Below are positions 9,795-10,212 of a stretch of 10,212 nucleotides of DNA, piece after piece (position 1 is the stretch's first letter; every line of letters starts with the position of its first letter). The DNA is taken from IMG/VR virus record IMGVR_UViG_2740892487_000003; one strand, written 5' to 3'. The position numbers and the translations under genes are program-made. The notes under the pieces are model-generated. The model did no database searches, was not told the DNA's origin, and saw nothing but the letters and a program-made list of their open reading frames with translations. This DNA is from a virus (lineage: Duplodnaviria > Heunggongvirae > Uroviricota > Caudoviricetes).

Positions 9795-10027
9795 TGCGCG
9801 CCAATAGCAATGATGCACATTTATTTTCGAACCCTGAGTACATCATAGATGTATGCAGATAAACGATTATGGATCAGTGGCAAATGCATAGAGTAGGTTT
9901 GATGCTCTTACGAGGCATGCAGGTGAACAATACCAACACATAATATATTGAACCTACCCAAAAAAATGAGTAGGCATACTTGTTAAAAGTATATTTCTGA
10001 TCAATGATATAAAAATAAGCACTCTAG

Positions 10028-10212
10028 GGAAGGTGCGAACAAGTCCCTGATATGAGATCATGTTTGTCATCTGGAGCCATGGAACAGGGTTCATCATGAG
10101 TCATCAACTTACCTTCGCCGACAGTGAATTCAGCTGTAAGCGCCGTCAGACCAGAAAAGAGATTTTCTTGTCCCGCATGGAGCAGATTCTGCCATGGCAA
10201 AACATGGTGGAA
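10028..10212 (+). mobile_element. IS5 terminal inverted repeat and 5' region; the element continues past the window edge
   Basis: GGAAGGTGCGAACAAGTCCCTGATATGAGATCATGTTTGTCATCTGGAGCC... matches the IS5 end recalled from memory, and the flanking CTAG (10024-10027) fits the IS5 target preference (C-W-A-R). Confidence 0.9.
10096..10212 (+). CDS. insH: IS5 transposase InsH, N-terminal 39 codons (3'-truncated by the window)
   Basis: [39 protein letters not shown] matches the InsH N-terminus from memory. Confidence 0.9.

Follow-up and report, generated by a model that had tools for sequence, protein, structure and literature searches.

An IS5 element in the leader of a RexAB-like cassette in a P4-type satellite beside the leuX island

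The stretch of DNA analyzed here (IMG/VR record IMGVR_UViG_2740892487_000003, 10,212 nucleotides, henceforth termed the window) begins within one insertion sequence and ends within another. Between them lie DNA of the K-12-type leuX island, an att core, a P4-type satellite core, the cos site, and a short spacer. The features are as follows, with positions numbered from the first letter of the window.

1-187, plus strand: right end of an IS3-family element (ISEc52/IS911-like), with the transposase C-terminus and the terminal repeat
185-446, plus strand: phosphoethanolamine-transferase (eptA-like) pseudogene, 3' remnant, part of the leuX island; island intergenic DNA continues to 762
763-1970, minus strand: IntB-type tyrosine integrase pseudogene of the leuX island, split into two frames
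2214-2232, no strand: att core TGGTGCGAAGGCCGGACTC, matching the leuX 3' end except for one deleted nucleotide; island to the left, satellite to the right
2233-9775: P4-type satellite core with crr, alpha, orf106, orf151, epsilon, cI/C4 RNA region, orf88, ori, sid, delta, and psu
9776-9794, plus strand: cos cohesive-end sequence GGCGAGGCGGGGAAAGCAC, 19 nt, an exact match and identical to P4 positions 1-19
9795-9801, plus strand: TGCGCGC, hotspot boundary, the last bases common to satellites with differing cargo
9802-10027, plus strand: low-GC 5' leader of a RexAB-like hotspot cassette, 226 bp, assigned from identity in nine loci, contiguity in genomes, and construct pFR86
10024-10027, no strand: CTAG, IS5 target tetranucleotide, 12 nt 5' of the rexA-like ATG in uninterrupted relatives
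10028-10212, plus strand: IS5, ins5A-proximal end; terminal repeat from 10028, ins5A ATG at 10096

The satellite core and the quality of its sequence

Positions 4078-11624 of P4 (X51522/NC_001609) align to window positions 2214-9775 with 97.6% identity, the alignment ending at the right cos end, and the core proteins are 99-100% identical to those of a close relative (locus L001). With psu, delta, sid, alpha, epsilon, an alpA-like orf88, and cos all present, the element belongs to the P4-like satellites. The RNA-based immunity region of P4 (C4 antisense RNA) appears intact: minus-strand matches to the Rfam models C4 (6568-6655, 77.9 bits), isrK (6764-6841, 74.7 bits), and c4-a1b1, the a1/b1 targets of C4 (6802-6854, 51.5 bits), all exceed the gathering scores.

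Several core genes look broken at first sight. Compared with GPEC1446, which is 99.6% identical, the window carries 26 substitutions and 18 single-base indels, 17 of which are internal, and every one of these 17 falls in an A/T homopolymer run:

Internal indels: 1881, 2176, 2262, 2271, 2279, 2617, 2619, 2665, 2667
Internal indels, remainder: 2748, 4306, 6308, 6762, 7097, 7422, 7424, 7573

The indels produce apparent frameshifts in alpha, epsilon, an icd/ash-like gene, orf88, and the island integrase gene, while in epsilon, the icd/ash-like gene, and orf88 the protein sequence flanking the frameshift on either side is 100% identical to that of the relative. On these two grounds we rejected the view that alpha, epsilon, the icd/ash-like gene, and orf88 are decayed pseudogenes. 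The homopolymer indels are probably sequencing errors in the source assembly, and since the frameshifts most likely have this origin, the satellite itself is probably intact. Such errors would also explain why exact-protein look-ups of broken fragments fail, as for the 278-aa N-terminal fragment of alpha, which returned no record.

The left flank and the satellite's own integrase

A transposon in Salmonella phage SEN22 shares 99.5% identity with the IS3-family end at 1-187. Comparison with L001 gave 95.6% identity to an ISEc52 fragment and 93% to an IS911 copy. The same junction (99.8% identity), annotated as ISEc52, was found in three of 5,426 complete genomes (FAM21845, 873.10, and OY754409). 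The ISEc52-like element cuts short the phosphoethanolamine-transferase pseudogene (compare L002, 11273-12179). FAM21845 lacks the island DNA from fec to the ISEc52 junction, including nanXY and an IS4, an absence that points to an IS-mediated deletion common to the lineage of the window.

Beyond this element the window follows the leuX region of K-12 MG1655, with 100% identity over 185-527 and 99.5% over 522-2235. Its first part, 185-420, is 100% identical to a stretch annotated in MG1655 as a phosphoethanolamine transferase pseudogene; the L001 counterpart lies at 14079-15262. In K-12, this pseudogene is followed by an integrase gene that abuts tRNA-Leu, in an island known as KpLE2/intB/yjgX. 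MG1655 (L024, 4343-5674) carries an IS2 at a point corresponding to window positions ~522-527, where the window is uninterrupted. The interval 188-762 contains no intact gene.

The island integrase is 99.5% identical to that of K-12 and 59% identical to P4 Int. An in-frame stop lies just upstream of a 268-aa ORF (A in the window, C in L001, at 1572), and 763-1970 contains at least one frame change. The 268-aa fragment (763-1569) has exact copies in 404 blocks of the protein collection, which identifies the gene as a widespread inactivated allele and not as an error. In eight loci (L014, L015, and L017-L022) the exact fragment adjoins ahr/leuX with no satellite present.

Copies of the att core occur in the window, L001, and L002, and an intact core lies in tRNA-Leu. 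The attP core of P4, annotated at 4078-4097, marks the exact start of P4 homology to the window, and a three-way alignment shows that the window matches K-12 to the left of TGGTGC(C)GAAGGCCGGACTC and P4 to the right of it. The internal core is one C shorter than the sequence at the 3' end of leuX and in the attP core of P4 (TGGTGC-GAAGG versus TGGTGCCGAAGG). Because the same 1-nt deletion is found in two independent relatives (L001 at 17030 and L002 at 14214), the imperfect internal site was evidently inherited, and it might make it harder for the satellite or the island to excise separately.

On these identities, 185-2232 is K-12-type leuX island DNA and not satellite DNA. The earlier note had correctly recorded an IS3-family end and about 600 bp without an ORF, yet it had placed both on the integrase side of the satellite. 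Since the left flank is island DNA, the IS3-family end and the ~575-600 bp beside it are uninformative about satellite cargo.

Complete relatives supply the arrangement to which this junction belongs. In GPEC1446 and FAM21845, the order is fec/nan island, pseudogene, island integrase, att core, alpha to psu, cos, cargo, a second integrase gene, and leuX. This second integrase, between cargo and leuX, is 94% identical to P4 Int. The satellite thus occupies leuX in tandem with the K-12-type island already resident there; the integrase in the window is not that of the satellite, whose own gene would lie to the right of the window if the arrangement of the relatives holds. We also considered an unintegrated P4 circle in attP form, suggested by the contiguity of int, att, and alpha, and rejected it in view of the tandem integration and the three-way junction in the relatives. 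In L013, a different P4-like satellite (1683-8981) occupies the same tandem position beside the same 268-aa island integrase fragment; the tandem slot at leuX is therefore used by several satellite lineages. The L013 element has a pair of genes of the Psu family, one short Ogr/Delta gene, and cargo composed of cII-like, Beta_protein, and Peptidase_M78 genes.

The spacer after cos and the IS5 insertion site

The sequence between cos and IS5 (9795-10027) is exactly 233 bp long, and no ORF of at least 40 aa lies wholly inside it, as the earlier note had seen. Post-cos sequences of loci L001-L012 part ways after TGCGCGC, and in most relatives the match to the window ends at 9801-9805. As satellites with different cargo share these seven bases alone, we place the start of the hotspot at ~9802. 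The remaining 226 bp are specific to one cassette: L001, L004, L006, and L009 match 9796-10027 at 100% identity, and five other loci do so at 99.1-99.6%. In all nine, the next gene encodes a RexA-like protein of 313 aa (252 aa as called in L008), followed by a gene for a 151-153-aa protein and then by a 422-aa integrase and ahr, with the exception of L008, where int is interrupted by IS1. Among the 5,426 complete E. coli genomes, 20 contain the leader, and in all 20 it is contiguous with the rexA-like and rexB-like genes at 99.5% identity or more. The GC content of the leader is 34.5%, compared with 55% in the satellite core and 31% in the rexAB-like genes of relatives. A consensus promoter scan of 9802-10027 found no site at threshold; by eye, a putative extended -10-like TGaTATAAA can be discerned at 10005-10013.

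In relatives, the cassette comprises two genes. The product of the first, rexA-like (313 codons), scores 43.1 bits with the Pfam RexA model, for which the cut-off is 25; that of the second, rexB-like (151 codons), yields a PADLOC RexB match with E = 5.5e-6. The P4 hotspot has been defined as the psu-int interval directly adjoining cos (Rousset et al. 2022, PMC9122126), and Table S1A of that study lists for it "RexA + hypothetical, WP_000775192 + WP_000957222"; the latter accession is the one annotated in L001. Table S2B describes the rexB-like product as a four-TM protein and gives construct pFR86, "RexAB-like", which carries the same leader and whose protein 1 starts MKLNYFTYTITDNRNQ, as in L001 (PMC9122126). 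In the published paper pFR86 stands among the "additional tested systems" and not among the validated ones (PMC9122126); a preprint reported that a distant RexAB analogue from the P4 hotspot protects moderately against P1vir. Lambda RexAB is an abortive-infection system characterized by phage exclusion through membrane depolarization.

With its cassette-specific leader directly after cos, the window contains the 5' part of this module, and no other part of it. In phage P4 itself, cos and gop are separated by a non-coding leader of 227 bp, so that about 230 ORF-free bp after cos are normal architecture. We read the spacer as the native leader of the catalogued RexAB-like cassette and not as an emptied cargo slot. 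The proposal that 233 ORF-free bp reflect a truncated cargo slot fails against the leader's 99.1-100% identity in nine loci, its contiguity with the cassette in 20 of 20 genomes, and the P4 precedent. Its premise that IS5 sits in the cargo position is sound, given that the position is the cos-adjacent P4 hotspot; the truncation is not, since the spacer is a normal leader. A BLAST comparison of 158-762 and 9795-10027 with P4 gop/beta/cII, likewise suggested, gave chance matches only (E > 0.08).

IS5 begins at 10028 with its terminal repeat, GGAAGGTGCGAACAAG..., and both this terminal inverted repeat (GGAAGGTGCGAA...) and near-identity to reference elements assign the end to IS5. A K-12 IS5 copy is identical at 183 of 185 positions, with the match starting at its first base, and annotated copies in P1 and phage 434 are 98.4-98.9% identical to 10028-10212. 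The window holds 185 bp of the element, i.e., 39 codons of ins5A; a complete element measures 1195 bp. The ins5A gene points away from cos, in the direction of psu and of the cargo genes of relatives. A likeness of 24-32 nt upstream of some K-12 IS5 copies was dismissed as AT-rich chance similarity, with 18 of 45 positions identical.

The position 233 bp past cos and the CTAG target both hold as noted earlier. CTAG stands directly before IS5, it is single-copy in the empty site, and of the four CTAG tetranucleotides in the window this is the only CTAG, CTAA, or TTAG in the spacer. L001 homology passes through CTAG and ends at the IS5 boundary, so relatives have the empty site: in L001 it reads cactCTAGgcgaaagagaacATG, and the uninterrupted sequence runs ...aataagcactCTAG gcgaaagagaac ATG. 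By this comparison IS5 lies between the leader and the Shine-Dalgarno-like AAGAG of the rexA-like gene. The element targets Py-T-A-Pu, most commonly CTAG, and prefers AT-rich, easily destabilized DNA (PMC5493358); a CTAG in an AT-rich leader fits this preference. The observation of IS5 at this site is confirmed and far beyond chance.

The leader-IS5 (left) junction is spanned by none of the 5,426 complete E. coli genomes, and exact pattern searches of the GTDB representative genomes, IMG/VR, and the JGI metagenomes did not find it. These four collections also lack the right junction that a simple insertion would give (IS5 end, CTAG, and GCGAAAGAGAACATG). No IS-interrupted cassette occurred among 21 complete genomes carrying the RexAB-like cassette. 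The exact Psu protein is present in 1095 blocks of the protein collection, and none of the ten contexts displayed contained IS5.

Interpretation and comparison with known systems

Any account of the locus has to accommodate what is directly observed: where IS5 inserted and which way it points, what each flank is, and the tandem architecture. The explanation that we consider probable overall combines a tandem satellite, a RexAB-like hotspot cassette, and an IS5 inserted into the leader CTAG. Before the insertion, the hotspot would have carried the 226-bp AT-rich leader, the rexA-like gene, and the rexB-like gene, followed by a P4-type int and leuX. IS5 would then have transposed into the single CTAG of the leader, 12 nt 5' of the rexA-like start codon, thereby separating the leader from the ribosome-binding site and coding sequence and leaving cos untouched. 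A simple insertion predicts that IS5 is followed by CTAG, GCGAAAGAGAAC, and the rexA-like ATG, in the overall order 1195-bp IS5, CTAG, GCGAAAGAGAACATGAAGTTAAAT..., rexA-like, rexB-like, int, and leuX. IS5 is likely still followed by the second CTAG, which would complete a 4-bp target duplication, and then by the rexAB-like genes, the int of the satellite, and leuX. From the att cores of L001 (17030 and 27703), the satellite would have grown from ~10.7 to ~11.9 kb, near the 11.6 kb of P4. Of the suggestion that cargo was either deleted or lies beyond both IS elements, the part concerning IS5 stands, i.e., the coding part lies beyond it or has been lost, while the IS3-family side has no bearing on the question.

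The insertion may alter cargo expression. Reduction or abolition would be the most likely effect, because 1.2 kb now separate the leader from the ribosome-binding site. At fucAO, upstream DNA fused to the weak ins5A promoter gives rise to transcripts that run through the whole IS5 into the operon (PMC11894529). As ins5A faces the cargo here as well, comparable read-through could leave residual or altered expression.

Other readings differ mainly in what they place beyond IS5. The element could mark a rearrangement breakpoint at which recombination or deletion removed or moved the rexAB-like genes, int, and perhaps leuX, leaving a cargo-less satellite unable to excise. IS-driven decay does occur at this locus, as in ET846, where an IS1 deletion extends from fimD into the rexA-like gene. 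FAM21845 and ET210 also have an IS1, in the hotspot or in int, and IS3 or IS21 elements lie within the satellite of several relatives. In E. coli genomes that contain IS5, the number of matching places has a median of 2 and a maximum of 43, and these could serve as recombination partners. The window, however, shows a perfect IS5 terminus at a canonical CTAG, as in primary transposition, there is no positive sign of loss, and simple insertion is the commonest outcome; we therefore regard a breakpoint as unlikely, albeit the most serious competitor. An assembly artefact, i.e., a chimeric join or contig collapse at a repeat, might be suspected in a window that begins and ends within IS copies and whose 17 A/T-homopolymer indels relative to L001, with 100% identical flanking protein, point to a low-accuracy assembly. 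It would be surprising for a misjoin to coincide with the first base of the IS5 repeat, right after the single CTAG of the leader, and this origin appears very improbable.

The cargo slot could also be pictured as bracketed by IS5 and the IS3-family element, with 158-762 and 9795-10027 as residual cargo DNA. The order int, alpha, psu, and cos resembles the circular P4 map, and the integrase in the window is a P4-family enzyme sharing 59% identity with P4 Int. Against this stand the 99.5-100% identity of 185-2235 to the K-12 leuX island, the exact integrase fragment beside leuX without a satellite, the start of P4 homology exactly at the annotated attP core, the second, 94% P4-like integrase between cargo and leuX in relatives, and the dissimilarity of 158-762 to the P4 left arm. 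The satellite-free integrase contexts, the second integrase, and the island identity refute this model, to which we attach next to no credence.

Within the preferred explanation of a simple IS5 insertion, the event might be adaptive and not neutral decay, acting as a switch for a satellite-borne RexAB-like defense. IS5 could reversibly silence a costly or toxic abortive-infection-type pair, reversibility following from its capacity for precise excision, or the cassette could come under an IS5 fusion promoter, as at fucAO. We judge an adaptive role to be quite improbable.

In ET846 (L025, 5297-7527), a truncated fimD is joined to the last third of the cassette; the rexB-like gene, the P4-type int, and leuX remain, and nothing is left of the satellite core or of the leuX island as far as fim.

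Every component of the locus is already known at 97-100% nucleotide identity, and the finding amounts to one more IS5 insertion in AT-rich, horizontally acquired DNA, in a hotspot and a cassette that were already catalogued. For annotation it carries two cautions. P4-type satellites at leuX can stand in tandem with an integrase-bearing island, so the nearest integrase may not belong to the satellite, and a rule that delimits the hotspot from psu to the nearest integrase would draw it wrongly if followed in the wrong direction. An ORF-free stretch of ~230 bp after cos is a normal leader and does not indicate that cargo was lost. Should IS5 modulate the RexAB-like pair, the locus would provide a small example of IS-mediated tuning of satellite-borne defense.

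Among known systems, the K-12 leuX island is the counterpart of the left flank (185-2235, 99.5-100% identical). It abuts leuX directly and carries IS2, whereas in the present locus a satellite is expected between island and leuX, the integrase contains stop codons, and the pseudogene is truncated by the ISEc52-like element. The non-essential region of P4 (cos-gop-beta-cII-int) offers the same plan of cos, a ~230-bp leader, rightward cargo, a leftward int, and attP, but its left arm has no sequence similarity to the leader in the window, and the type of cargo differs. Closest on the right is the RexAB-like cassette of pFR86, which occupies the same position directly after cos; relatives encode the catalogued proteins, and the displayed part of the pFR86 insert differs from the window leader by one mismatch. 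Unlike that cassette, the one in the window is interrupted by IS5, at a distance of 12 nt from where its first gene would start, and the window covers the leader alone. The IS5 insertions at fucAO, glpFK, bglGFB, and flhDC involve the same element (98.9%) at CTAG in AT-rich DNA upstream of an operon (PMC5493358, PMC11894529), and the orientation with ins5A first toward the downstream genes is the same in the fucAO fusion-promoter case (PMC11894529). Those regulatory insertions were selected for activation and lie upstream of a promoter or create a Crp-dependent fusion promoter (PMC5493358, PMC11894529), whereas the IS5 described here sits between a leader and a ribosome-binding site.
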